A stretch of 64,000 bases of DNA from an uncultured Clostridia bacterium. Its GTDB lineage: Bacteria; Bacillota; Clostridia; TANB77; CAG-508. The position numbers and the translations under genes are program-made. Under the pieces are notes generated by a model. It searched no databases. It saw nothing but the letters and a program-made list of their open reading frames with translations, and was not told where the DNA came from. This document shows, piece after piece, positions 12,710 to 60,187 of this stretch (the first letter of the stretch is position 1; each line of letters begins with the position of its first letter). The stretch is from assembly GCA_944386175.1 (NCBI GenBank), contig CALXAB010000001.1, positions 47,645 through 111,644 on the forward strand. The letters run 5' to 3'.

Positions 12710-13564
12710 TTAAACAGTTGAAACTTCTATATCTAAACTTGAAATAAATTCTTTTAGTTCTTTTATTATTTCTTCAAACTTAATATCATTTGCATATTTA
12801 TTCTTTTTAGCATATCCATTCCATAAACTTACAATTCTATCATATGAAGATATATTATCTAAAATCTGTTCATAATCCTTTAAATATCCAAGCGATTCTC
12901 TTTTATCAAATGTATTTTTTATTGATAGTTTTAAATTCTTAATATCAATATTATCTTTAAATTTGCTTAAAAACATATGTACATCATAGTAATCCTTCAT
13001 TCTGCTATTATACTATCCTCTTCTTAAAATGGTTTCAATTTTTTCAGATATGATTGTTTCAGCGTTATATGTATAAATTAATATCTTTTTATTTTCAAAT
13101 AATGATGGATAACTATACTCCAACTCTTTTGGTACAACTTTATCTCCTGTAGAAATATCAATATCTAAATTAATTTTAACATTTTCTAATTTTCCAATTA
13201 AATGATATTTATTTCCACCATATTCATCATCTTCTCTTATATCAGTTATATCAATTAATTCAAACTTCACTCCATCTTTTAAATCAATATTTAATATTTC
13301 GTTTAAAACTTTTGCCATCTGTTCTTTAGAAATATCTAAACCCTTGATTGTTGTATCCATATCTCTTGTAGTTCTATTATTGATTCCAAATAGTGCTGAT
13401 AACAGTAAACCACCTTTTAATATAAAATTTTCTTGATATTTTGAAAGTGAAATTCTTTCTAAGATTCTTTCAAACATAAATCTTTGTAACAATTCATAAT
13501 GATTTAGTTGGTATTTTTTCTCTAGTTCCTTTGATTTTTGTTTAAGTTCTTTATATTTTATCAC
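12710..13564 (-). pseudogene. abiEii: AbiEii/AbiGii-family nucleotidyltransferase toxin interrupted by an in-frame TAG
   Basis: ORFs 13013-13564 and 12710-13000 are in the same frame, separated by a TAG at 13013-15. Together they are colinear with the intact 281-aa paralog at 53266-54111. Confidence 0.7.
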
Positions 13565-14153
13565 TCATCAAAACCTCCATTATAATAGTTAATTTCTCAT
13601 ATACATTAAATATTTTAGCATATTCATCTAATAGTTTTAAATTTTTATCCTTTAAATTAAAATAACTTTTCAAAATTTTATTATATAATTCTATATCGTA
13701 CTCATCTTGTTTTTTTAGCATATCACATATACATCTTTCTAAATTATATACAATTATAGGATTACCATATGGACTTGTTATAGTAATTTTACCTATATTT
13801 AACTTTTCTTTAGATACATAGTGAATTTTTACATTTTCTCTAATTCTTTTATGAGAATATGTAGTAACATCAAGTTCATATGGTACTCTTTCACTAATTC
13901 CCAGCAAGTGAAACGCAGTATTGTATGAATAAATAATATTGTTATAACGTTTTTGCAAAATATAGTATTCATCTTCAATTAATTTATTATCAATATATAA
14001 ACCTCTTGATACTCTTCTAATTATTCCTTTTTTAATTAATTCCGGAATATATATTCTTTGAATTCCGTTTTGCTCTATTTCACTAGATGTTATATAACCA
14101 TTATTTCTTTTTAAAAATTTTTCTATTTTTTTTATATTCATATTAACCTCCAT
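13551..14153 (-). CDS. abiEi: AbiEi-family antitoxin / transcriptional regulator (type IV TA)
   Basis: Paralog of 54108-54701 (GVI/YITSSEIE...VARGVYI/VSRGLYI). Likely starts at the ATG at 14141, preceded by GGAGG. Overlaps the downstream toxin gene. Confidence 0.75.
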   Translation of the reverse strand: MEVNMNIKKIEKFLKRNNGYITSSEIEQNGIQRIYIPELIKKGIIRRVSRGLYIDNKLIEDEYYILQKRYNNIIYSYNTAFHLLGISERVPYELDVTTYSHKRIRENVKIHYVSKEKLNIGKITITSPYGNPIIVYNLERCICDMLKKQDEYDIELYNKILKSYFNLKDKNLKLLDEYAKIFNVYEKLTIIMEVLMSDKI

Positions 14154-20104: not shown

Positions 20105-20330
20105 ATAAGTACACTTAGTGAACTTTTTCTTAAAAATCACTTCTTTTTTGTTCATTTAGTGAACTTTTGCACTCTAAAAAGCGTTTTTTATCCATTCACT
20201 CGGTGAATTTTTGCATCAGATCTGCATAAAATTTTTGTTTTTTTATTAACTCTTGAAGGCTTGCCCTTCAATGTGTATATGCGTTGCGTAATGCACGCTA
20301 TCCTGCCTTTAGTATTCACTTTAGTTCACC
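20105..20330. repeat. Repeat locus A: three GTTCAC-N3-GTGAAC-like palindromes followed by the conserved roughly 100-nt two-hairpin T element
   Basis: Palindromes at 20109-23, 20150-64 and 20194-208. The T element at about 20224-20313 includes a 7-bp stem at 20253-59/20265-71. It is homologous to loci B, C and D (36.5, 43.2 and 51.0 kb). Confidence 0.85.
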
Positions 20331-21767: not shown

Positions 21768-22589
21768 CTATACATTTGCAACTTGTAATGTTTCAAAATA
21801 ATCTAGTACACTTTTAACTACCTCTTCTATTGGTAGTTCTAGCCAATTGTTTTTAGCAGTATTTAAACTCTTCAAATAATTTTTGTTATGTAATATTCTA
21901 TTTAATCTTTTAAATATATCCTCTAAGTTATTTTCTTTCATAGTTTCATCACTAAATATAAAAGTATTAAAACATTTTATCAATTTATTCTTATTTAAAT
22001 TTTCATTATTTATTAAATAATAGAAATCAAATATATCTTTGTATCTTGTAGAGATAAAACCAAATTTTAATAATGATTTCAATTTTTCTGAAAAAATTTG
22101 CTCTTTAGAATTTATTAGTAAAGTAACACTTTCTTTGATATTATTTAGATCAAAACAATATTCTTCTTGTTCAATATCAAAATTTTTATGCACTCCTATA
22201 TCTAATTTTGTTTCAATTTTATTATGTCTTTTATCTTTTAATTCAATATATACTCTTTTTCCATTATAATCTTGATGACTTAATTCTTCAATTGGAGCTA
22301 TAATTTTTATTGTTATATCTGATTCTTCATGATTCAACTTATCTATAAAATTTTCTATGGACTCATTTGATAAAGAATACTTTATAAAATCTAAGTCTAA
22401 ATCTCTTGTAGCTCGACGACTATCTTTAGAAATATTATGCATAACTACTCCACCTTTTATAGTTATATTTCTATTTAAAGAACTTTTGGATATTTTGGCT
22501 AGTATAATATCTTGACATACTTTGGCAGATGCATCTAAATGTTCATATCCATCTTTAATATAGTTATCTCTCATTTCTTTTAAATTCAT
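21768..22589 (-). CDS. AbiEii/AbiGii-family nucleotidyltransferase toxin (second family member in the window)
   Basis: KGGVVMHNIS...RATRDLDLDF is the DUF1814-type NTase motif. Overlaps the upstream antitoxin stop. Confidence 0.65.
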   Translation of the reverse strand: MNLKEMRDNYIKDGYEHLDASAKVCQDIILAKISKSSLNRNITIKGGVVMHNISKDSRRATRDLDLDFIKYSLSNESIENFIDKLNHEESDITIKIIAPIEELSHQDYNGKRVYIELKDKRHNKIETKLDIGVHKNFDIEQEEYCFDLNNIKESVTLLINSKEQIFSEKLKSLLKFGFISTRYKDIFDFYYLINNENLNKNKLIKCFNTFIFSDETMKENNLEDIFKRLNRILHNKNYLKSLNTAKNNWLELPIEEVVKSVLDYFETLQVANV

Positions 22590-35450: not shown

Positions 35451-36125
35451 TTAAAATTCCCTTATATCATATCTAAAATATAGTCCATCCATTTTTATTT
35501 TATGAAAATCTTTTATTATATTTTCTTTGACTTTATTAAAATCTTTTCCTACTCTTCTTAATGCAAATACTCTACCTCCTGAAGGATATAGTATATTATT
35601 TTTTGATATTATATGTTCCCCTATAATATCTGTTGTATTTTTTACTTTGTTCATACCTAAAATTGGTTCATCAAAACTACTTCTTTCTACTTCTGGATAT
35701 CCTGCTGAAAATCCATACATTGCTATAGAAAAGCAGTCTTTTTTCCAACAATTATTTATCTTTTCTACATCTTCATAAAAGAAATTTATTATATCTATAA
35801 AAGGTTTATTCAGTAACCCTAATAAAGCTAACCACTCTGGATTACCTGTTCTTGTATTATATTCTAATACATATACTTTTTTATCTTCGGTAACCATTAT
35901 TCCTATATATAAAATATAGTTATATTCCATATTTTCTTTTTTCATACCTCTTATAGTTGGTTCTATTATATCTTTTTTTAATTGTTCTTCTTTTTCTGTG
36001 CTAACTCTTGCATAAGCACATACTCTTAAATTACCTTTTATAACTTCTCCTGTTGTTCTATTAATTCTTCCTTTTTTCTTCTCTATTACTTGTACTTTCA
36101 AATTTAACCTCTCTTTCTCAAGCAT
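35451..36125 (-). pseudogene. purD: Chimeric ORF: the first 46 codons of a large serine recombinase fused in frame to the 3' about 177 codons of phosphoribosylamine--glycine ligase (purD)
   Basis: Residues 1-46 (and the upstream DNA) are near-identical to the start of the recombinase at 48681-50573 up to ...ARVSTEKEEQ. From about 35983 downstream the product (IIEPTIRGM...VLEYNTRTGNPE...PSGGRVF) is the PurD C-terminal half. No purD 5' half is in the window. Confidence 0.7.
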
Positions 36126-36354: not shown

Positions 36355-36519
36355 AAAAATCCTCCTCTGCTTGAATTAAATTTCAAAAAAGAGCGACAAA
36401 AAAGCCAGCCGGCTAGCTAGACTGACTTCTTTGTCTTACATTTTTTGATAATACAATTATATTATGCTGTTCTATAAAGTTCAATTCCCGTTTTTTTCCC
36501 TTTTTTCTATTTTAATTGA

Positions 36520-36890
36520 TAAAGCGTTGACTTTTTAGTTAGTACACTAAGTAAACTTGTGTAAAAATTTTTTTAATTATTTTTTACTTTATTATTTTTG
36601 AGTTCACTTAGTGTACTTTTTGTTTTGTATTTAAAAACCTTAGTTCACTTAGTGAATAAAAAACTAACTTTCAAGTACACTTGGTGAACTTTTTCTTAAA
36701 AATCACTTATTTTTCGTTCATTTAGTGAACTTTTGCACTCTCAAAGGCATTTTTTAGCTGTTCATTCGGTGAATTTCCGCATCAAATTTGCTTAAAATTT
36801 TTGTTCTTTTGTTAACTCTTGAAGGCTTGTCCTTCAATGTGTATAGGCGATGTGTGCACACTCGCTTTCCTGCCTTTAGTATTGTTTTTT
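36520..36890. repeat. Repeat locus B: six GTTCAC-N3-GTGAAC-like palindromes plus the T element
   Basis: Palindromes at 36541-55, 36601-15, 36642-56, 36674-88, 36715-29 and 36759-73. T element at about 36789-36878 with stem 36828-34/36840-46. Confidence 0.85.
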
Positions 36891-40379: not shown

Positions 40380-40960
40380 TTATATTTTTTCTCCAATATT
40401 TATTATATTTTTATATTACTTTTCATATTCTATCATAATTTTATTTCTTTCTCAATAAAATTATAAAGTTTCAAAATATATTTATCCTTACATTTGCTTA
40501 ATTATGAAAAAATCCGCAATAGAAATAATGTCAAGAGCGAGTGATAATGAGTTTATTTACTCTTGATATTATTTTTATTGCAGATTAAATTTACCCTGCA
40601 AATGTATGAGGCAAAAAATAAGTATCAGTACATATCTACCGACACTTAAATTTATAAAGATTCTCTATTACTTATTTCATAAATTCTTTCTAGCAATTGA
40701 AATAACTGATAATTTTACATATCTACAATTAAACACAACCTATATATGTCATGCTTATCATAGACACAATCTCAAATTCCCTAGTATTTCAAACACTTCT
40801 ATCAATTTTCTAAAATTTAATTTATGTGTTTCCACTTACCACATCTGCAACTACTTTAACTTTCACATCTGAATTTTGATGTTTTTCTCTTCCATATCTT
40901 CCTTTTTTCTCGAAAGTTATAATCTCTGAAAACATATCAAATTCAAGTATTACCTGTCCT
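40380..40960. other. Conserved non-coding E region downstream of recombinase 2. It holds a 26-bp imperfect inverted repeat with a 23-nt spacer (40512-40585) and about 400 bp that are about 90% identical to 58140-58560
   Basis: Direct comparison of the two stretches in the window. The only ORF here (40606-40872, plus strand) is not conserved in the second copy. Confidence 0.7.
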
Positions 40961-40963
40961 GTT

Positions 40964-42679
40964 TTAGTTGTAGCACTGCCACACATTCCACATGTGTTGG
41001 TCATCTCTGGTTGCAGTAAGTTTTAAATGTTGTTTATCTCCTGTTGCAGTAAAATTGTCTTTACAATTTATTTCTGTTCCGTTTTTACAAATAAACCTTA
41101 TTGTATATGGATTTATTGTACCATTTTCTAATGTTTCCCCAATTATTACTTTCTCTATTATACATTCAAAAATATCTTTATCAAAATTTTTCATTATTTC
41201 CATATCTTTAAATAAACCTTTAAACTTGTTTAATCTATGTTTAATACTTTCATTTCTGTTTGTGTCTTTTAGTAGGTTTTGTATTTTCTGTTCTACTTTT
41301 AATAGTTCTATGTTTAGCTCATCATATTTTAAAGTATATTGTTCTTTATTTATTCTGCCTTCTAAGTTTAGTTCTAATAGATTATTAAGTTTCTTGTTTA
41401 TTTTCTCTTTGTCTTTTTCTAGCTTATTTACTACTGTTTCTGTAGTATTTTCTTTTAAGACATTTTCTATTTTTTCTAAAAAATCTTCTACTACTTTTTT
41501 ATTGTTGTTACAGAGTATTCTATATCCTTGTACAAAACAATCTTCTAGTATTTCTTCTGGTATTGCTTTACAGTATGGGCATTCTTCTTTTCCATGTTTT
41601 GCTCTTTTGATACATTGCCATACTGCTTTTTCATATTTTCTTTTTGAGTTCCAGTTTCTTCTTGTAAGTAAGCTACCACAAAATCCACAATATAATTTAC
41701 TACTAAAAGCATATTTCTTACTATAGTTATTATTTCTTCTTCCTGTTTCTCTTGTTCCTACTCGTTTTATTCTTATTTCTTGTACTCTATCAAATAACTC
41801 TTTACTAATAATTGGCTCATGATGTTCTTTTATATAATGCTTTTCTGCTTCTCCTAAATTGCTTAATCTTTTATGTGATATTGGATCTATTGTAAATGTT
41901 TTTCCCATTAGCACATCTCCAATATATTTTTCATTTTTTAGTATTCCTCTTATTGTTGATTCGTTCCAATTATCATTACCTTTTGGGGATTTAATGCCTT
42001 TTGCTTTTAGTTCTTTTGCTATTGTACTTGAACCTATTCCGTCTACATATCTTTCAAATATATATTTTATAACTTCTGCTTGTTCCTCATTTATAGTTAT
42101 CTGTTTTGTTATTAAATCATAGTTATAACCGTAACAACCATTATAGCCAATTAACTCTCCCCTGTCTTTCTTCATTTTTAGTCCAAGCAATACATGTGAA
42201 GATATGTTCTCACTTTCTTGTTGTGCCATAGCACTTAATACTGTTAGTAGCATTTCTCCTGTTCCTGATAGAGTATTTAGATTTTCTTCTTCAAATAAAA
42301 CTGCAATGTTCTTTTCTTTTAGCATTCTTACATATTTTAAAGTATCTAATGTGTTTCTAGCAAATCTTGATATGGATTTTGTTAAAATCATATCAAATTT
42401 TCCAGACATTCCATCTGTTATCATTTTCATAAAGTCTGTTCTTTTAAAATCTAATGTGCCACTTATAGATTCATCTGCATATATTCCTGCAAATTGCCAT
42501 TCAGATTTGCTATTGATTTTTTCATCATAATACTTTAATTGTGATTGGTAACTATTTAATTGTTCTTTATTTCCTGTACTAACTCTACAATATGCACATA
42601 CTCTTAATCTTTCTTTGATTGTTGTACCTGTTACTCTGTTAATTCTTCCGTTTGTTTTCTCTATGACTTGAATTTCCAT
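40964..42679 (-). CDS. Large serine recombinase (resolvase/invertase-type catalytic domain plus recombinase and zinc-ribbon domains); C-terminus frameshifted
   Basis: RVCAYCRVSTGNKEQ is the catalytic Ser region. 571 aa. The last about 58 residues are encoded in another frame (ORF 40822-41004, similar to the C-terminus of the recombinase at 48681-50573). The shift is near 41018-41029. Confidence 0.8.
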   Translation of the reverse strand: MEIQVIEKTNGRINRVTGTTIKERLRVCAYCRVSTGNKEQLNSYQSQLKYYDEKINSKSEWQFAGIYADESISGTLDFKRTDFMKMITDGMSGKFDMILTKSISRFARNTLDTLKYVRMLKEKNIAVLFEEENLNTLSGTGEMLLTVLSAMAQQESENISSHVLLGLKMKKDRGELIGYNGCYGYNYDLITKQITINEEQAEVIKYIFERYVDGIGSSTIAKELKAKGIKSPKGNDNWNESTIRGILKNEKYIGDVLMGKTFTIDPISHKRLSNLGEAEKHYIKEHHEPIISKELFDRVQEIRIKRVGTRETGRRNNNYSKKYAFSSKLYCGFCGSLLTRRNWNSKRKYEKAVWQCIKRAKHGKEECPYCKAIPEEILEDCFVQGYRILCNNNKKVVEDFLEKIENVLKENTTETVVNKLEKDKEKINKKLNNLLELNLEGRINKEQYTLKYDELNIELLKVEQKIQNLLKDTNRNESIKHRLNKFKGLFKDMEIMKNFDKDIFECIIEKVIIGETLENGTINPYTIRFICKNGTEINCKDNFTATGDKQHLKLTATRDDQHMWNVWQCYN

Positions 42680-42881: not shown

Positions 42882-43100
42882 TTACAAAAGTTTATAATCT
42901 TTTAAGATTTTTCTTTTTATTTCAATATATTCTGAATCTAGTATTAAGTTTTCTCTAAACAAATTATTTAAAAACAATAATTCCATGCTACAGTCTAGCA
43001 TATTATTATCTTTTAGTTGTTTAGAGTTATCTACTTCTATTTTATAATTATGTAGCATGAAATTGCTCCTTTTCTTTAAATTTGAAAAGAAAAAGAACAA
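42882..43100 (-). CDS. SHOCT-like small protein (divergent paralog)
   Basis: ENLILDSEYIEIKRKILKDY motif. Same position relative to the recombinase as 36169-36354. The start is possibly the internal Met (MLHNYK, about 43058). Confidence 0.45.
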   Translation of the reverse strand: MFFFFSNLKKRSNFMLHNYKIEVDNSKQLKDNNMLDCSMELLFLNNLFRENLILDSEYIEIKRKILKDYKLL

Positions 43101-43229
43101 AGAAACTAGAATCTTTCTAATCCCTTTGCTCTTTCTCTTTCATACTACCATTATATTATCGTGTTTTTATATAGTCAATTCCATTTTTATTCCCTCTTTT
43201 CTATTTTTGATATAATTCTAGTATCTAAT

Positions 43230-43620
43230 TTTATAAGTACACTAAGTAAACTAAAAATTGTATAATTTTAAATTGCAGTTCACTTGGTGTACTAGAAAAA
43301 TATAACAAAAGTTCACTAAGTGTATTTGTAAATTTTGTTTTATTTTCACATTCACTTAGTGAACTAAATTCAAAAATATTATTCAATATCAAGTACACTT
43401 GGTGAACTTTTTCCCAAAATAAGTGAATTTTTTTAATTTTTTAATTCACCATTTTTAATTTTGAACGAAGAATAGCGGGTTTGAGCCAGTTCACCGAGTG
43501 AATTTTTACATCATATTTGCATAAAATTTTTGTTTTTTTATTAACTCTTGAAGGCTTGTCCTTCAATATGTATAGGCATTTTGTTAAGAATGCTATCCTG
43601 CCCTCATTTTCAATGAGGTA
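43230..43620. repeat. Repeat locus C: seven palindromes (one widely spaced) plus a T element with a variant second hairpin
   Basis: Palindromes at 43237-51, 43278-92, 43311-25, 43350-64, 43393-407 and 43489-503, plus GTGAAT-N14-ATTCAC at 43424-49. T element at about 43519-43600. Confidence 0.85.
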
Positions 43621-43788
43621 TTTTGCTCTTAAAATGTACTTATTCTACTTAATTAAATATACTTATCCTTAAATCCTCTTAATCGAAAAACAATGTGCTT
43701 TTAAAAATAAGTCAAGGTTGTGCGATAGCACATTTATTTAAACCTTGACTTGTTTTTATAAAGCACATTATACTTTTCTAAAAGGATT

Positions 43789-45240
43789 TTAACTATTTAT
43801 AAAAAATTGAATTATTGCAAATATTCCCATATCTGAAATTGTTTTTATTGCATCTACATTAGCAATAACTTTATAAGGGTGATGAATTACTAAATCTAAA
43901 TAGTTTTTCATTCCTTCATTATTAAAACATGTCTCCCATGCTCTTGAAATAGTATCGTCATCAATAAGATTTTGTTTATCTATTGATATTTTATTTATAA
44001 TCTTCTCTAATCTCAAGTCCAAATTATTATTTGCAGATTTCCATTTTTCCCATTTTCCTTTGTTTATTAAAAAATAGATGCTTGATTGTTCTAATAATGA
44101 GCGGATTAAAAAGCAATATGATATTGGGTAATTTTTATATAAATTTCCAAATGATAAATGCTGAATTTCATAGCATAGATTTTTAATCCCTTTAGCTCTA
44201 TCATTACTATATTTTAGTTTGCTACAATTAATATTTTTAAATAAAATACTATTGTCTTTTCTTGTTAATCTGATTTTATTAAATGCTATACTTTCATTTA
44301 TTTTATTTTTTACTATTTCACTTTCATTGGCATTATTATGTTTTTCTTCTCTACCATTAGAAAATATCTTCATTTGTTCATTTTTATTTTCTAAATTTTC
44401 ATTTATTTTATCTTTGCTGTCAAACCTTTCACTAACATTATTTTCTATATTGCCATACAAATATTTTTCTATATTAGCATTATTTTTTATTGTGTTACTT
44501 GTAATCCTACCACTTACAATATCTTGAACAATTCGTAATACTTTCTTGTCTAATTCATTTATTGAAGACAATGGCATTAAAACATTGTTATTAAAAGAAA
44601 TATTCAGATATTCTTTACCAACTTTTGAAGAAACAATCTTTTCAAACTTATTTACTGAAAAATTATTGTCAACTCCATCAAATGCTTTTTTACAAAATCC
44701 TTGTAATTGTGAAAATATATTTTTTACTCCCATTTTATCTTCAAATCTTTTTATTGAAGCTGTATCCCATTTTAAAGCTCCTGTATCAGTTGTATGTACA
44801 TTTCTTATATATCCAGCACAATCTTCAAATGAAGTGGCCACATAACAAGGAATTTGAAAATATTCTTCTCCTTGAATTCCTGCACTCATTGCATATATGC
44901 TTCTTATTTGTGTATATGAAAAGTATTTAAAAGATTCTACCAATTTAGGATTTTTTAAGATTTTCATTGCTGTTAATCTTCTATTACCATCCCATGCCAC
45001 AAATTTTTCTTTTTTCTCATCATAAGTGACTGTAACTATTGATTGTGGATACCAACCATTTGTGTAAATATCACTAATTAACTTATGCATTGCCTTCGCT
45101 TCTTTAGAATTTCTCACCAATTGTTGCATTATAAAAAGTTCATCCGCTATCATAATTTGTGTATGTCTTGGATTCTCTGGATTTACTAATATTTTTTCTA
45201 TGTCTATTAGTTGATGTTCTCTCATATATAATTCCCCCAT
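43789..45240 (-). CDS. ParB/sulfiredoxin-fold (ParB N-terminal domain) protein with a long uncharacterised C-terminal region
   Basis: VNPENPRH and VAWDGNRRLTAMK resemble ParB boxes I and II (GxxRxxA). The likely start is the ATG at 45225, preceded by TGGGGGAAT. Confidence 0.6.
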   Translation of the reverse strand: MGELYMREHQLIDIEKILVNPENPRHTQIMIADELFIMQQLVRNSKEAKAMHKLISDIYTNGWYPQSIVTVTYDEKKEKFVAWDGNRRLTAMKILKNPKLVESFKYFSYTQIRSIYAMSAGIQGEEYFQIPCYVATSFEDCAGYIRNVHTTDTGALKWDTASIKRFEDKMGVKNIFSQLQGFCKKAFDGVDNNFSVNKFEKIVSSKVGKEYLNISFNNNVLMPLSSINELDKKVLRIVQDIVSGRITSNTIKNNANIEKYLYGNIENNVSERFDSKDKINENLENKNEQMKIFSNGREEKHNNANESEIVKNKINESIAFNKIRLTRKDNSILFKNINCSKLKYSNDRAKGIKNLCYEIQHLSFGNLYKNYPISYCFLIRSLLEQSSIYFLINKGKWEKWKSANNNLDLRLEKIINKISIDKQNLIDDDTISRAWETCFNNEGMKNYLDLVIHHPYKVIANVDAIKTISDMGIFAIIQFFINS

Positions 45241-48680: not shown

Positions 48681-50573
48681 TTATACTACTCCGCACACCA
48701 TGTCAACTTCTATCGTTACTTTAATTTTATGATTTTCTGTTCTTTTAACCTTATTTTTGCCTTTTCTATCAAAACTAATAAAATCTTCAAAAGCAGTAAA
48801 TTGGGCTATTGTATCGAATCTTTCAGACATAGCACCGAGCAACACTCCACATGGCTCACACCCAGTCTGTAGATAGTTTTGGCTTACCTCGTATGATGAC
48901 TGTTGCAAACTACCTTGATTTTTATCTTTTTGACATTTGATTTCGTTTCCAGATTTTAGGATAAATGTTATTACTCTTGGATTTACATCTCCATTTTGTT
49001 CTTTTTCTCCTATTATAACTTTTTCTATCATTAATTCAAAAACATCTTTATCAAATGTTGGCATTATTTCATCATCTTTAAATAGACTTTTAAACTTGTT
49101 TAATCCTTGATTTAAACTAATTGAATCTTCTAACTCTAGTTGTAAATGTTCTTGCTCTTTTTCTATTTTGTTTATCTTGTTTTGTAATTTTGCCTTTTTA
49201 TCTTTTAATGTTTCAAGTGTTATTGTTCCATTCAAGTTTAAATCAATTAACTTGTCTATCTTTTCTTTTAAAGTTTGTTTTTCTTCTTCTAATTTTTTAA
49301 TAGAACTTTCATTACTTTCTTCTTGTATGATTTCTTCCATTTGTTTTAAGAATGTTTTGATTAGTTTTTTGTTATTATTACATAAAAGTTTATAACTTTC
49401 TGTAAATGCTTCTTCTATAATGTTTTCTTTCATTGCTTTACAATATGGGCAATTTTCTTTTCCATGTTTTACAAATTCCATACAATGCCATACCGTAATA
49501 CTATTTTTTGTTCCAGAGTGCCAGTTTCTTCTTGTTAATAAACTTCCACAAAAACCACAATATATTCTACTACTAAAAGGATATTTTCTGCTAAAGTTTC
49601 CTTTTCTTCTTCCAGAGCCTCGTACTCCTCCTCGCTTTTGTAATATTTCTTGTGCTTGATTAAACATTCTTTCTGAAATAATTGGTTCATGATGTTCTTG
49701 TATGTAATACTGATTTTCTTCTCCCATATTGACTACTCTTCTATGTGAGATTGGATCTGTTGTATATGTTTTTCCTTGTAAGACATCTCCTTTGTATTTT
49801 TCGTTTTTCAAAATACCTCTTATAGTTGAGTCATGCCATTGTTTCTTTCCTGTTGGTGTTTTATATTTCATAGCAGTTAGTTCTTTTGCAATTGTTGTGC
49901 AACCTACTCCTTGACAGTATCTTTCAAAGATATATCTTACTATTTCTGCTTCTTGATAATTTACTGATATTTTCTTTGTTTCTTTATCATATACATATCC
50001 TAAACATCCATTATATCCAATTAATTCTCCTCTTTTTTGTTTCATCTGTAATCCTAGTTTTACATGAGAAGATATATTTTCGCTCTCCTGCTGTGCCATT
50101 GCACTCATTACTGTTAGCATTACTTCGCCAGATAATTCTAAAGTATTGATGTTTTCTTCTTCAAAATAAATAGTGATTCCTTTTTCCTTTAATAATCTTA
50201 CATACTTTAAAGTATCTACTGTATTTCTTCCAAATCTTGATATTGATTTTGTAATTATCATGTCAAATTTGTTTTCTGTTGCATCTTGCATCATTCTCAT
50301 AAAGTTATCTCTTTTATAGTCAAGTGTTCCTGTTATCCCTTCATCTGCATAAATCCCTACATAAGTCCAATCACTTCTTGATTTTATTTTTTCTTCATAA
50401 TATTTTAGCTGAGAATTATAACTATTTATTTGTTCTTCTTTTTCTGTACTAACTCTTGCATAGGCACATACTCTTAAATTGCCTTTTATAACTTCTCCTG
50501 TTGTTCTATTAATTCTTCCTTTTTTCTTCTCTATTACTTGTACTTTCAAAATTAACCTCTCTTTCTCAAGCAT
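48681..50573 (-). CDS. Large serine recombinase (full length, 630 aa by the ORF track; a TTG start at 50549 gives 622 aa)
   Basis: LRVCAYARVSTEKEEQ is the catalytic Ser region. Large recombinase domain with a Cys-rich region. About 70% identical to the recombinase at 40964-42679 and identical to the chimeric ORF at 35451-36125 over the first 46 codons. Confidence 0.85.
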   Translation of the reverse strand: MLEKERLILKVQVIEKKKGRINRTTGEVIKGNLRVCAYARVSTEKEEQINSYNSQLKYYEEKIKSRSDWTYVGIYADEGITGTLDYKRDNFMRMMQDATENKFDMIITKSISRFGRNTVDTLKYVRLLKEKGITIYFEEENINTLELSGEVMLTVMSAMAQQESENISSHVKLGLQMKQKRGELIGYNGCLGYVYDKETKKISVNYQEAEIVRYIFERYCQGVGCTTIAKELTAMKYKTPTGKKQWHDSTIRGILKNEKYKGDVLQGKTYTTDPISHRRVVNMGEENQYYIQEHHEPIISERMFNQAQEILQKRGGVRGSGRRKGNFSRKYPFSSRIYCGFCGSLLTRRNWHSGTKNSITVWHCMEFVKHGKENCPYCKAMKENIIEEAFTESYKLLCNNNKKLIKTFLKQMEEIIQEESNESSIKKLEEEKQTLKEKIDKLIDLNLNGTITLETLKDKKAKLQNKINKIEKEQEHLQLELEDSISLNQGLNKFKSLFKDDEIMPTFDKDVFELMIEKVIIGEKEQNGDVNPRVITFILKSGNEIKCQKDKNQGSLQQSSYEVSQNYLQTGCEPCGVLLGAMSERFDTIAQFTAFEDFISFDRKGKNKVKRTENHKIKVTIEVDMVCGVV

Positions 50574-50880: not shown

Positions 50881-50979
50881 TTGTCTGACATTTTTTGATA
50901 ATACGATTATATTATGATGTTCTATAAAGTTCAATTCCCGTTTTTTTCCCTTTTTTCTATTTTAATTGATAAAGTGTTG

Positions 50980-51350
50980 ATTTTTTAGTTAGTACACTAA
51001 GTGAACTTGTGTAAAAATTTTTTTAATTATTTTTTACTTTATTATTTTTGAGTTCACTCGGTGTACTTAGTTTTTTATTATATCAATTTTTAGTACACTT
51101 AGTGAACTAATTATAAATTATTTCATAAAATTTAGTACACTTGGTGAACTTTTTCTTAAAAATTACTTATCTTTCGTTCATTTAGTGAACTTTCACACTC
51201 TAAAAGAGATTTTTTAGTCATTCATTCGGTGAATTTTTGCATCAAATTTGCTTAAAATTTTTGTTCTTTTATTAACTCTTGAAAGCTTGACCTTCAATGT
51301 GTATATGCGTTGCGTGATGCACGCTATCCTGCCTTTAGTGTTCACTTTAT
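50980..51350. repeat. Repeat locus D: six palindromes plus the T element (about 95% identical to locus B)
   Basis: Palindromes at 50992-51006, 51052-66, 51093-107, 51135-49, 51176-90 and 51220-34. T element at about 51251-51345 with stem 51279-85/51291-97. Confidence 0.85.
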
Positions 51351-53265: not shown

Positions 53266-54111
53266 TTATTTTTTTAATTCATTCTTTATTTCTTCTAATA
53301 CTCCCATCGTATCTTCATAATTAATATCTTCTGCATAACTAAATTTAGATTGATAATTCTTCCAATGCTCTTTCAGAACATCACTTTCTTTTATAACTTC
53401 CATTATCTCATTTATATTATTTAATTTATCCATTGAACCTCTATATTCAAATTTCTTCAATATAGCTTGTCCTAATAATTCTTTATTAAAATTTTGTTGT
53501 TGAGTAGTCCATAATATATAAATATCATAAAAATCTCTCGCTCTTGTAGTATCTATATTTCTTGATATAATTGTTTCAAATTTATCAGCTATTACTGTTT
53601 CCATATTATATGCTAATATTTCTATTGAACGATTTTCAAACATTAAATCGAACTTATAATTTACTTCTTTTGGAACAATTACATCTCCTGTTGTTATATC
53701 TAATTTCATTGGTACAACTAACTTATCAAATTTAGCATCTAAAGCTACTCTGTATCCTCCATATTCATCTTCTTGTCTTATTTCTTTTATACTTCTAAAT
53801 TCAAATGCTACTCCATCATCTAAATCTATATTAAAAATTTCATTTAAGATATTTTCAAGATTATCCTTTTCTAAATCAAATCCTTTTATCGTTGCATCCA
53901 TATCAAGAGTATTTCTCATGTCTATTCCAACTATTGCTGTTATTAACATTCCTCCTTTTAATACAAATTTATATTTGTATTTTGATACCGAAATTCTTTC
54001 CAATAGTCTTTCTAGCATATAGTTTTGTAAAATAATGTTTTCATTCACATCTACTTTATCTGACATATTCTTTATCCATGCTTTTAATTGTGCTCTATTT
54101 TTTGCTATCAC
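53266..54111 (-). CDS. abiEii: AbiEii/AbiGii-family nucleotidyltransferase toxin (intact)
   Basis: KGGMLITAIVGIDMRNTLDMD is the NTase motif. 281 aa. A 4-nt overlap (ATGA) with the upstream antitoxin gene. Confidence 0.75.
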   Translation of the reverse strand: MIAKNRAQLKAWIKNMSDKVDVNENIILQNYMLERLLERISVSKYKYKFVLKGGMLITAIVGIDMRNTLDMDATIKGFDLEKDNLENILNEIFNIDLDDGVAFEFRSIKEIRQEDEYGGYRVALDAKFDKLVVPMKLDITTGDVIVPKEVNYKFDLMFENRSIEILAYNMETVIADKFETIISRNIDTTRARDFYDIYILWTTQQQNFNKELLGQAILKKFEYRGSMDKLNNINEIMEVIKESDVLKEHWKNYQSKFSYAEDINYEDTMGVLEEIKNELKK

Positions 54112-54701
54112 AATAACACCTCCAAGTATTTTCTTACTTCATCTTCAATATTAAATAATTTTGCATATTTGTGTAGTTTAATAGAGTTTCTATCTTTTCT
54201 TTCAGCATATCTTTTCATCGCATCTGTAAATAAGGCAATTTCTATTTTTTTCTTATTTCTGATAATGTCACATATTGTTCTCTCTAAATCATAAACTTTA
54301 ACTTTGTTTCCATATGGTGTATTCATTTCTATTATTCCTAATTCATATAATTCATCTTTTAAATAGAAAAATTGATAGTTTCTATCTTTTAGTAATTTAG
54401 TATTATAGTAACTAGGTATAGTCAATTGATATTTTATGGGAGTTCTATCACATAAATCATGAAAATACAAAGCTGTCTCATGAGAGAATATCCCTTTTTT
54501 ACAAATTGCTTGTGTGATAAAATAATTATCTTCAAATGTATCTGCTCCAATATATACTCCTCTTGCTACTCTATCTATCAATCCCTTTTCTATCATCCTT
54601 GTTAAAATCTTATTATTTATCCCAATATCTTCTACTTGATATGTTTCAATCACTCCATTATTATTTTTTAATAATTTTTCTACTTTTTCTATATCATCCA
54701 T
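54108..54701 (-). CDS. abiEi: AbiEi-family antitoxin / regulator (intact)
   Basis: Paralog of 13551-14153. Operonic with the toxin. Confidence 0.75.
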   Translation of the reverse strand: MDDIEKVEKLLKNNNGVIETYQVEDIGINNKILTRMIEKGLIDRVARGVYIGADTFEDNYFITQAICKKGIFSHETALYFHDLCDRTPIKYQLTIPSYYNTKLLKDRNYQFFYLKDELYELGIIEMNTPYGNKVKVYDLERTICDIIRNKKKIEIALFTDAMKRYAERKDRNSIKLHKYAKLFNIEDEVRKYLEVLL

Positions 54702-57833: not shown

Positions 57834-57939
57834 ATTCTATTCTCCTAATCTTTACTGTATATAATATATCATAAATTCCTTAATTTTACAATGAAATCGC
57901 CAATATTTTAATATTACATATATCTTTACATTTGCTTAA

Positions 57940-58560
57940 CTACCCCAAAATCTCCAATAGAAATAATGTCAAGAGCGAGTGATAACAAGTTCATTTACTC
58001 TTGACATTATTTGTATTGGAGATTAAAATTGCTTTGCAAATGTATAGCACAAATTTTTCGCTTTTTTCGTGATATAAAATTCCATCGGACGAAAATTTCA
58101 ATTTTTTCGTCCGATAAATTTTTATAAGCCGAATTTCATTAAATTTTCGTCCTATAAAAAATAAGCATCAGCAGATATCTACCAACACTTAAATTTATAA
58201 AGATTCTCTATAACTTATTTCATAAATTCTTTCTAACTATTAAAATAACTAATAAATTCACATATCTACTAACCACCTCAACCTATATATGTTTTTCTTG
58301 CCATAGATACAATCTCAAATTTCCTAGTATTTCAAACACTTTCATCAATTTTCTAAAATTTAATTTATGTGTTTCCATTTACCATATCTGCAACTACTTT
58401 AACTTTCACATCTGAATTTTGATGTTTTTCTCTTCCAAATCTACCTTTTTTATTAAAAGTTATAATCTCTGAAAACATATCAAAATCAAGTATTACCTGC
58501 CTTTCTTTAGTTGTAGCACTGCTACACACTCCACATGTGTGGTCGCTTATAAATTCAATT
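57940..58560. other. Second copy of the E region: 26-bp IR pair (57950-58023), a roughly 100-bp insertion holding a perfect 12-bp IR hairpin (58084-58115), the conserved non-coding stretch, and a remnant of a recombinase 3' end (about 58380-58556, no start codon)
   Basis: Aligned directly against 40500-41000. The remnant translates to ...CGVCSSATTKERQVILDFDMFSEIITFNKKGRFGREKHQNSDVKVKVVADMVNGNT*. Confidence 0.7.
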
Positions 58561-58597: not shown

Positions 58598-60187
58598 TTA
58601 TGCTCTTAACTTAAATGTTTTTGGTGCATATTTATATGCCACAAACAATGAAATCAAAGAATAAAGTATGCAAAAAACAATTGTTGCTATTCCAAAAGAA
58701 AATGTAGGTAGTTGTATTTGTATCATATACCAACATACAAAATAAGTTATTCCTTGTACCACTGTATATGTACTACTTTTCATTTCTGTGCTAACATTAT
58801 AAGGTTGAAGTAAATAGTACATTACTAAATAGTGGACTGAAAAAAATACACTCATTGCTATTATAGATATTATCAAAATAGCATAATTTAATGAATTATT
58901 TGTTCCACCAGATAAGTATAGTAATAAAGCTAATCCTAATCCTATTAGTGTTGCTGGTAATAGATTTATTACTATTAAAGTTTTTAATCTTTCTTTAAAT
59001 ATTCCAAGTATAACTTTTGGTGTTCTATATATTCTATATGTAAGCATACTGTAGTCGCAATTCATGAACATTGCTTGGGTAACAGATGAACTCCTATTTA
59101 TACAATACATGATAAACACAAAATATGGCAAATATACCATTAATATTTTATTTATTCTATCCTTAAGTCCGTTATTTATCAAAATCCCAATAATTAGTGC
59201 AATAAAAATAAATAATATAACAATCGATTGTTTTTTTACTGCTTTTGTTAAAATCTTGCTATGTCTTTTTACAAATAAATCATGAAAATATGCAAATCCA
59301 GATTTATTACTTGTATAGTTTTCATTCAATTCTATTTGTTTTAGACTTACATTTTTTATAGCTTGTGTTCCAGTATTTTTCTCTTGCATATATACATTGT
59401 TTTCTGTCAATATTTGTTTATACATCTTTTTATAATCTTTAAAATTATGTATTTTTATTAAACTGTAAATTCCTATTATTATTGAAATAATAAATATAAC
59501 TAAGAAAATATTCTTGTTTAATACTATATTTATAGCTGGTAATCCATAAGCTAATAATAGACACACTCCTACAAATCCCCAGACAAATTTTGTTGGTAAG
59601 TTTTCATTTGATGCCTTGTTTGTCTTCTTAAAGTAATATATGCTGTAATTCATTACAATTAGCTTTATTGCTACCACAAAAAATGGTAATACTATTTGAA
59701 TCCACAAGGGTACTTCTGTTATCATTCCAAATAAAATTGTAAATGGTAAAAAGCCAATAATCAGTTTTAATAATTGATAATAGTAATTAGATAAGCCATA
59801 TTCTCTTGCATTTATATTCATTAAAACTATTGCATAATATTTGTCTTTTGTTGGATTTAACATATATGTGTTTAAAACTCCTCCACATAGTGTTAAAAAG
59901 GTAAATAAATGTATAAACATATCTGATTGATTTGTTTTATACCATGATAATGCCATAAATATCATGGCTACAATATATATGATTTTTCCAATAAATATAC
60001 TTAATATTTCATATAATATACTTATAATATTTGCAAATATTTTTAATCCTTTATTTTTATATAAACTATTTGGCAATATTTTTTTAATAATTGGGAGTTG
60101 TTTTATAGAATAAATAATACTATTTATTCTATATGTATTTTTTAATTTAAAGGATGTTATAAATGTTTCTATCATATTAAATTTCAT
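58598..60187 (-). CDS. ABC-2-type transporter permease (polytopic membrane protein)
   Basis: 529 aa with about 10-12 TM segments. Directly downstream of an ABC ATPase gene. Confidence 0.55.
   Translation of the reverse strand: MKFNMIETFITSFKLKNTYRINSIIYSIKQLPIIKKILPNSLYKNKGLKIFANIISILYEILSIFIGKIIYIVAMIFMALSWYKTNQSDMFIHLFTFLTLCGGVLNTYMLNPTKDKYYAIVLMNINAREYGLSNYYYQLLKLIIGFLPFTILFGMITEVPLWIQIVLPFFVVAIKLIVMNYSIYYFKKTNKASNENLPTKFVWGFVGVCLLLAYGLPAINIVLNKNIFLVIFIISIIIGIYSLIKIHNFKDYKKMYKQILTENNVYMQEKNTGTQAIKNVSLKQIELNENYTSNKSGFAYFHDLFVKRHSKILTKAVKKQSIVILFIFIALIIGILINNGLKDRINKILMVYLPYFVFIMYCINRSSSVTQAMFMNCDYSMLTYRIYRTPKVILGIFKERLKTLIVINLLPATLIGLGLALLLYLSGGTNNSLNYAILIISIIAMSVFFSVHYLVMYYLLQPYNVSTEMKSSTYTVVQGITYFVCWYMIQIQLPTFSFGIATIVFCILYSLISLFVAYKYAPKTFKLRA

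Follow-up and report, generated by a model that had tools for sequence, protein, structure and literature searches.

What is the element that recurs beside each palindrome array of this locus, and what does it do there? In the 64-kb stretch of DNA analysed here (the window), four arrays of short palindromes are each followed by a conserved segment, which we call T, and the original prediction had taken these four segments for copies of one folded element. The copies and their arrays are borne out: a covariance model trained on 23 related copies (R1), run over the whole window with filters off, finds exactly those four, all on the + strand and with E-values of 1e-17 to 1e-26 (the next best match has E = 0.04), and palindrome sites resembling TTCACnnnGTGAA number 35 where 3.6 would be expected, nearly all of them lying in the four arrays. 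When the window copies are aligned with one another, they have about 90 nt in common together with the last palindrome preceding each (Table 1).

Every copy contains two hairpins and an unpaired tail. Hairpin 1, foreseen as a 7-bp stem with a single mismatch in copy D, is placed by motif coordinates as TTGAAGG-N5-CCTTCAA in all four, the mismatch being an A.C, and hairpin 2 takes the copy-specific sequences that had been described for it: GCGT..ACGC in copies A and D, GCGA..TCGC in copy B and GCATT..AATGC in copy C. What stays invariant in T is unpaired: CTTGY in the loop of hairpin 1, ATGTGT in the linker, and T(A/T)TCCTGCC, a tail directly 3′ of hairpin 2 that among about 113 distinct copies is the best-conserved part of the element (CTTTCCTGCC in 85, CTATCCTGCC in 20). 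Homology among copies ends at CCTGCC, and variable cargo begins there. Copy C, alone among those of the window, goes on to a third hairpin followed by TATTTT, as do 56 of 80 (70%) close relatives. It had also been argued that T does not look like a simple intrinsic terminator, and indeed no U-tract follows hairpin 1 or hairpin 2 on either strand; among the T hairpins of the window, the combination of a GC-rich hairpin with a U-tract occurs only at hairpin 3 of copy C.

Table 1. Coordinates of T copies, palindrome arrays, recombinase operons and att cores in the window.
Feature	Position	Strand	Basis and remarks
T copy A	20227..20318	+	93.9 bits (R1), motif coordinates, fold; hairpin 3 absent
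T copy A, parts	hairpin 1 20253-20271; hairpin 2 ~20281-20298; tail 20300-20307	+	tail ATCCTGCC
T copy B	36793..36885	+	89.5 bits (R1), motif coordinates, fold
T copy B, parts	hairpin 1 36819-36837; hairpin 2 ~36847-36865; tail 36867-36874	+	tail TTCCTGCC
T copy C	43522..43624	+	123.1 bits (R1); terminator-like site by scan; fold z = -3.15
T copy C, parts	hairpin 1 43548-43566; hairpin 2 ~43576-43593; tail 43595-43602	+	tail ATCCTGCC
T copy C, hairpin 3	43602-43618	+	then TATTTTG; terminator scan
T copy D	51253..51344	+	84.3 bits (R1), motif coordinates, fold
T copy D, parts	hairpin 1 51279-51297; hairpin 2 ~51307-51324; tail 51326-51333	+	tail ATCCTGCC
Palindrome array A	20109..20208		3 sites, left side truncated
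Palindrome array B	36542..36774		6 sites, ~41 bp spacing
Palindrome array C	43237..43503		6 sites
Palindrome array D	50992..51234		6 sites
Promoter and leader	36403..36484	-	TTGAAC-17-TATAAT 36484-36456; terminator-like leader hairpin 36420-36403; kept in relatives
Promoter and leader	43091..43178	-	TTGACT-17-TATAAT 43178-43150; terminator-like leader 43135-43091; scan, alignment
Promoter, recombinase operon of island 3	50906..50934	-	TTGAAC-17-TATAAT; motif coordinates
Small ORF, 61 aa	36169..36354	-	first gene of recombinase operon; predicted helical hairpin
Small ORF, 59 aa	42882..43061	-	38% identical to the 61-aa ORF; sequence comparison
Small ORF, 61 aa	50617..50802	-	sequence comparison
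LSR1, 571 aa	40964..42679	-	Pfam Resolvase + Recombinase + Zn_ribbon_recom
LSR2, 630 aa	48681..50573	-	Pfam; C-terminal extension crosses att core into tail ORF
First 48 codons of LSR2-type gene, fused to purD C-terminal half	35965..36125	-	deletion scar ending the island array
att core at LSR1 3′ end	40983..40994	-	attP-like joint between two tandem islands; recurrent junctions, motif coordinates
att core inside LSR2 3′ end	48842..48853	-	attP-like joint; sequence comparison, motif coordinates
att core, outer junction	58526..58537	-	chromosome/tail; only last ~20 LSR codons left; recurrent junctions
Tail module	40416..41002	-	54-aa ORF + inverted repeat 40511-40586; repeated at 57852-58544
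Long inverted repeat right of T	43671..43789		kept in many relatives; T-run on - strand follows

Relatives of T were collected in two ways. A 30-nt pattern taken from hairpin 1 gave 87 loci in species-representative genomes, all of them in MAGs of uncultured Clostridia from the gut of mice and humans, and a genome often contains several. The T region has no blastn match in the plasmid or phage collections. For a second set, independent of T, the recombinase protein encoded next to it served as the seed for a metagenome search, which yielded 73 loci; among the 48 of these with at least 2.3 kb of upstream sequence, 39 have T on the opposite strand, 460-2630 nt before the recombinase start, and the copies found in this way include divergent versions scoring 27-70 bits. 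T is also kept in islands whose recombinase has decayed, whether truncated, replaced or split by an IS element. As a side observation, IS3-family transposase genes lie between T, or its array, and the recombinase operon, to the left of T, in three relatives (L034, L055, L072).

The central claim of the original prediction, that T is a functional folded element whose structure is kept where its sequence changes, and the check proposed for it, a covariance model and a search of relatives for further copies, can be judged against about 130 further copies, in which all stems covary. In a gapless, structure-blind alignment of 23 copies the partners pair in 95% of cells, as against 31-54% when the partners are slid, and the observed covariation score of that alignment was reached in none of 500 shuffles. 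Both members of a pair have changed at 12 of 21 pairs among 87 distinct close copies and at 14 of 21 among 33 distinct copies of the recombinase-seeded set. The hairpin 1 stem appears in the latter set as TTGAAGG/CCTTCAA, TAGAAAG/CTTTCTA and TAGAAAA/TTTTCTA; hairpin 2, with compensatory changes at 5-7 of its 8 pairs, has 7-bp stems there (e.g., GTGATGC/GCATCAC or GAGATAC/GTATCTC); and hairpin 3 has the compensatory variants CCTCATT/AATGAGG and CCTCAAT/ATTGAGG. Hairpins 1 and 2 thus covary and the tail does not. Folded as single-stranded DNA, the two hairpins have z-scores of -3 to -5. The comparative record supports the view that T is a functional folded nucleic-acid element.

The copies that lack hairpin 3 (CCTGCC-TTTA-GTATT...) read like those that have it (CCTGCC-CTCAT-TTTA-ATGAG-GTATT...) minus both stem arms, and in the latter it looks as though TTTA had been flanked by an inserted inverted repeat. 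Because the copies of distant relatives are without hairpin 3, the shorter form may be the older one.

The four copies belong to mobile islands. The window contains three tandem, head-to-tail islands of a large serine recombinase (LSR), at about 35965-58545, and one remnant, which holds copy A. Their order is attL, tail ORF, variable cargo, T, palindrome array, promoter, leader, 61-aa ORF, LSR and att, so that on the - strand, which carries nearly all genes of the window, one reads T, the array, a strong promoter, a terminator-like leader, the small ORF and the LSR. The window islands are similar in size, about 7-8 kb, and those elsewhere range from 6 to 10.5 kb. Two intact LSRs are present (LSR1 and LSR2). 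Cargo differs from island to island, with an ABC exporter pair in the first, ParB-nuclease-like, Schlafen/AlbA_2 and HD proteins in the second, and AbiE, GNAT and APH in the third. The outer junction, at about 58545, adjoins an ABC transporter operon, and the remnant island of copy A lies beside a metallophosphoesterase gene, which in one relative (L063) is found just beyond an intact LSR.

It had been suggested that T might serve as a recombinase substrate, and this part of the prediction is not supported. The same att core, CACATGTGGARTGYGT, is present at all three window sites listed in Table 1. Tail homology starts at one and the same nucleotide beside unrelated flanks in four relatives (L007, L012, L019, L054) and at 58545 of the window, and in five others (L051, L060, L063, L084, L085) the LSR gene runs into unrelated DNA at this core. 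Judging from these recurrent junctions, the crossover site of the LSR is the 3′ end of its own gene; since the att junctions map there and T is internal to the island, T is not the att site and was ruled out as such. Across the core LSR2 reads on into the tail ORF, and LSR1 stops just after the core with the 54-aa tail ORF in another frame; with the att core inside the LSR 3′ end and read-through differing between LSR1 and LSR2, integration would therefore change the C-terminus of the recombinase.

A chimeric ORF on the - strand (35451-36125) begins with the 48 LSR2-type codons, which extend past the catalytic RVST motif, and continues in frame with the last ~175 aa of purD (GARS_A/GARS_C); the N-terminal half of purD is absent from the window, and the his operon follows. 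The fusion had suggested an attP inside the 5′ end of the LSR gene, which was rejected as a general rule. Because the N-terminal LSR fragments of other loci differ in length (67, 94 and 133 aa), the fusion is read as a deletion scar, apparently left by the loss of the recombinase body together with part of purD. An ORF at 58598-60187, at one point considered as a third recombinase, encodes a membrane protein without a Pfam match beside an ABC ATPase. Two diverged AbiEi/AbiEii pairs (68% DNA identity) lie at 12972-14153 and 53266-54701, and a third AbiEii at 21768-22589; one pair falls within island 3 and the others in or near the remnant island and a further accessory region. A similar two-island stack occurs on a 1.86-Mb contig (L088) beside a rumA-like (TRAM/U5-methyltransferase) gene.

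If T is not the site of integration, its invariant tail offers another lead. The nick site of MOBP oriT regions has the consensus 5′-(C/T)ATCCTG(C/T)-3′; in RP4 the nick region is GGGCCTACTTCACC-TATCCTG-CCCGG, with an inverted repeat immediately 5′ of the nick sequence, and sequence variation is greater in this repeat than in the nick region (PMC3772185). In T, hairpin 2 is a sequence-variable inverted repeat immediately 5′ of the putative nick sequence, and in close and distant members alike exactly 7 nt (TATCCTG or TTTCCTG) separate the end of its 3′ arm from the putative nick. Window copies A, C and D are identical to RP4 over CTATCCTGCC, at 10 of 10 positions. The usual layout of an oriT, as described in discussion of the sbyA/sbm sites, runs from the nick through inverted repeats and a palindrome array of protein-binding sites to a promoter reading away, and the T region has the same layout from its putative nick onwards. 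No gene for a relaxase, a coupling protein or a T4SS was found in the window by Pfam or in the 164 loci, and tblastn with PcfG, PcfF and PcfC of pCF10 and with MobT gave no match in those loci. The three window islands and L088-L091 thus have an integrase and att and lack relaxase and mating-pair genes, and a class of oriT-only islands is already recognised (PMC5704250; bioRxiv 10.64898/2026.01.13.699239).

From the nick-region match, the layout, the covarying hairpins beside a constant tail, the start of variable cargo at CCTGCC, the retention of T even where the recombinase has decayed, the missing transfer genes and the existence of this class, we therefore rank first the reading of T as an oriT-like cis site in a family of small integrative islands that carry a large serine recombinase and lack a relaxase, and we give it an even chance of being right. 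In such a scheme the LSR would excise the island by recombination at the 3′ end of its gene, where att lies, and a MOBP-type relaxase from a co-resident conjugative element would recognise hairpin 2 and T(A/T)TCCTG^CC on the + strand (^ marks the putative nick), nick after the G, and pilot the + strand into the recipient with the cargo side leading. Hairpins 1 and 2 would refold in the transferred single strand and so mark the site for the closing reaction, and the palindromes, which lie to the side of the hairpins, would be occupied by a protein with an accessory or regulatory function. Observed are the anatomy of T, its conservation and covariation, its place in the island, the missing relaxase, and the likeness to the RP4 nick region in sequence and geometry; that T is nicked, that a helper acts, which way transfer runs and what the array does are what we infer here. 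No helper element or helper oriT of this sequence was found, so the conjugative partner is hypothetical.

Several points count against an oriT. The consensus, which derives from proteobacterial systems, is matched exactly in 20 of the 113 distinct copies, A, C and D included; 85 have TTTCCTGC, with one mismatch, and their TTTCCTG places that mismatch within ATCCTG, the core hexamer. In pCF10, an enterococcal plasmid of the MOBP class, the oriT has an inverted repeat and TCCGCTTG^CA. By itself YATCCTGY is fairly frequent in the AT-rich sequence of the window, with 9 matches where 5.3 are expected, and a cognate relaxase is lacking in cis, both in the window and in the 164 loci. In 56 of the 80 close copies the terminator-like hairpin 3 stands directly after the putative nick, where an oriT needs none, and reading T as an oriT assigns no role to the CTTGY loop or to the ATGTGT linker. 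The two sets of features pull in different directions: the invariant tail, by its sequence and by its position, suggests a site of DNA processing, an oriT nick region with hairpins in single-stranded DNA, and hairpin 3 with its U-tract points to transcription of the + strand.

The latter would follow if T were a small structured ncRNA, or the 3′ domain of an RNA of ~450 nt, transcribed from the + strand divergently from the recombinase operon and ending at hairpin 3, the main alternative, which we think less likely than an oriT. Its role might be that of a switch between excision and maintenance, for example through binding of a protein by the CUUGY loop and the single strands AUGUGU and UCCUGCC. 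Hairpin 3 followed by UAUUUU, in those same 56 of 80 copies, is scored as a + strand terminator and has compensatory variants, but 25% of close copies, nearly every distant one and window copies A, B and D lack it. There are two candidate + strand promoters, a TAAAAT that precedes hairpin 1 by 20 nt and has the last palindrome at its -35 position, and a conserved TGnTATAAT at the distal end of the array, although neither is kept across the T family. All three stems covary, and T holds no conserved ORF and has indels in its 5′ part, as might be expected of an RNA; no Rfam family is matched by T, however. On the + strand G.U pairs exceed A.C pairs (95 vs 24 and 27 vs 11), but most of the excess comes from one outer pair, without which the counts are 30 vs 24 and 15 vs 11, and a call of the strand from wobble pairs was accordingly set aside as weak. 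For the RNA reading a target is also lacking: duplexes of T with operon RNA are no better than those of shuffled T, and a recurrent duplex site at LSR codons 40-50 shows no covariation, most relatives having AGAGTAAG where pairing needs AGAGTTAG.

Rejected along the way was the idea that T is antisense to the LSR mRNA: in the window the 5′ part of T is complementary to CAAGAGTTA...GAAGAACAA in codons 40-50, and this complementarity is not conserved in relatives and has duplex energies no better than those of shuffled T. Coding potential was likewise dismissed, the short ORFs on both strands having no ribosome-binding sites and variable starts and being broken by indels. The reverse complement of the T-rich 5′ part (20232-20258 and 36798-36824) does resemble CAAGAGTTAG...GAAGAACAA near the codons for the catalytic serine of the LSR (e.g., 50430-50460), a resemblance that is not conserved in relatives, and the LSR′-purD deletion junction falls at the end of this T-resembling stretch. 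Rfam 15 had no matches in the window at gathering thresholds, and at E up to 10 there were only chance-level ones around copy C.

An undescribed kind of element can be envisioned as well: a structured RNA particular to LSR islands, transcribed from the strand opposite the recombinase operon, that controls or joins excision, integration or island immunity, for instance by titrating the palindrome-binding protein or the recombinase; a variant would have T nicked by a non-canonical enzyme encoded by the island. We consider this rather improbable. Were it true, T would be the first RNA partner of an LSR system, and T as an RNA of any kind would represent a new family linked to the control of serine integrases, of relevance to integrase-based genome engineering.

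The fixed placement of T relative to the array raises the possibility that T is read as duplex DNA together with the palindromes, as a cruciform, a protein-binding site or an accessory site for synapsis or directionality. T always stands 12 nt from the last palindrome, its linker ATGTGTAT resembles a half-site of the palindromes of distant relatives (ATACAC-N3-GTGTAT), and copies without hairpin 3 continue with two TTCAC half-sites. Proteins that read inverted repeats in duplex DNA conserve sequence, however, and the stems of T change sequence and keep pairing; an accessory site of this kind also sits uneasily with att junctions that lie elsewhere than T. Large serine recombinases normally need just simple att sites, which counts further against a duplex site, and we regard such a role as quite unlikely.

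We think it very unlikely that T is a packaging or replication signal for a helper phage or a rolling-circle initiator, that is, a cos/pac-like site with the array as terminase repeats or a dso/sso nicked in the CTTG loop. An array next to a dyad resembles the cosB-cosN layout, the loop CTTG^Y is presumably akin to the pC194-type nick CTTG^ATA, and the three tandem islands share a size of ~7-8 kb. Yet no island holds a gene for a Rep, primase, terminase or capsid protein, sizes elsewhere spread over the range given above, and neither the 2.9 million viral contigs, in which the T pattern has zero matches, nor the phage collection, in which the T region has no blastn match, offer any trace of T. 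Both the duplex-DNA reading and the phage or rolling-circle reading thus fit the covariation and the gene content worse.

Set beside known systems, T as an oriT-like site has clear likenesses and clear differences. It shares with MOBP oriT regions (IncP/RP4, the VirD2/T-DNA border) an inverted repeat immediately 5′ of a highly conserved sequence on the same strand, in T the putative nick sequence, a repeat that is variable in sequence yet paired, and accessory binding sites on the side of the repeat; unlike them, most T copies read TTTCCTGCC, a second conserved hairpin with the CTTGY loop lies upstream, no cognate relaxase is nearby, and the host belongs to a low-GC Clostridia lineage in which MOBP nick sites are poorly charted. 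Relaxase-less islands such as the Vibrio MGIs, the 'iOriT' elements (Ares-Arroyo et al. 2026) and the class IV/V IMEs (Guedon et al. 2017) similarly consist of an integrase, cargo and a cis site without relaxase or T4SS, have defence genes beside the site, accrete in tandem at one att and form families across many species. Those islands, however, are defined by the similarity of their oriT to a known helper oriT, whereas the helper of the T islands is hypothetical and their integrase is an LSR whose att overlaps its own 3′ end. Like the serine-recombinase IMEs of Firmicutes (the Tn4451 family and the rumA-targeting streptococcal IMEs), the T islands have a single LSR and integrate site-specifically; the array at L088 adjoins a rumA-like gene, and among annotated LSRs the nearest, at 46% identity, come from streptococcal 'rum' elements. 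A relaxase of their own (TnpZ and others) is encoded by Tn4451 and by most IMEs described so far, and the T islands have none. As for the RNA alternative, the sRNAs of mobile elements (pCF10 Anti-Q and pAD1 mD type) are also short structured units with a terminator beside the promoter region of a mobility operon, and the mobility operon next to T starts with a terminator-like leader; T, in contrast, neither overlaps nor complements the operon transcript, and its terminator is missing in many copies. The type of site is a known one, whether an oriT-like site on a hitch-hiking island or a mobile-element sRNA, and what is new is the T family, its design of two hairpins and a tail, its association with tandemly stacked LSR islands of gut Clostridia, and the fact that it has no database entry.

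Many small islands consist of nothing but a recombinase and cargo, and their route from cell to cell is usually obscure. As a cis site for riding conjugative elements, T would explain the spread of these islands, a family that is widespread in uncultured gut Clostridia of mouse and human, stacks in tandem and carries defence and export genes, and model R1 together with the att core provides practical markers for finding them.

The region between T and the recombinase has its own conserved features. The window palindromes have the form GT(A/T)CAC-N3-GTGAAC and those of distant relatives ATACAC-N3-GTGTAT; the notion that they form RNA hairpins was rejected, as half-sites vary independently (GTACAC..GTGAAC) with no compensation. 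A conserved extended -10 element, TGnTATAAT, on the + strand (43205-43216 in the window, and in relatives) stands back-to-back with the recombinase promoter and is aimed through the array at T. On the other side a near-consensus promoter and then a terminator-like hairpin precede the small ORF, an arrangement kept even in distant relatives (L099, L120), which suggests, from sequence, attenuation or a short leader RNA in the recombinase operon. In about 40 of the loci collected with the hairpin 1 pattern, the spacing from T to the 59-61-aa ORF and to the start of the recombinase gene is constant. AF2 models the 61-aa protein as a helical hairpin (pLDDT 78), and it has no Pfam family and no meaningful PDB match. 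In the two distant relatives a ParB-HTH (PF17762) protein of 246 aa is encoded between promoter and small ORF (L099 2491-3234, L120 2496-3236). The candidates for binding the array are the product of the 61-aa ORF in the present islands and the ParB-HTH protein in the distant ones.

To the right of T, a conserved module of ~170 nt with a long nested inverted repeat (AATGTGCTTT...AAGTCAAGGTT..AACCTTGACTT...AAAGCACATT) is found at 43671-43789 of the window and in eight relatives (L004, L005, L013, L025, L026, L050, L051, L068); because a T-run follows on the - strand, this repeat is likely to be the terminator of the - strand cargo operon. A second family of long palindromes, ATAG(G/A)ACGAA-N10-12-TTCGT(C/T)CTAT or TATATCACGAA..TTCGTGATATA, occurs at 58045-58160 of the window and right of T in L035, L082, L099 and L120, and in L082 its members form a tandem array with a period of ~48 nt.
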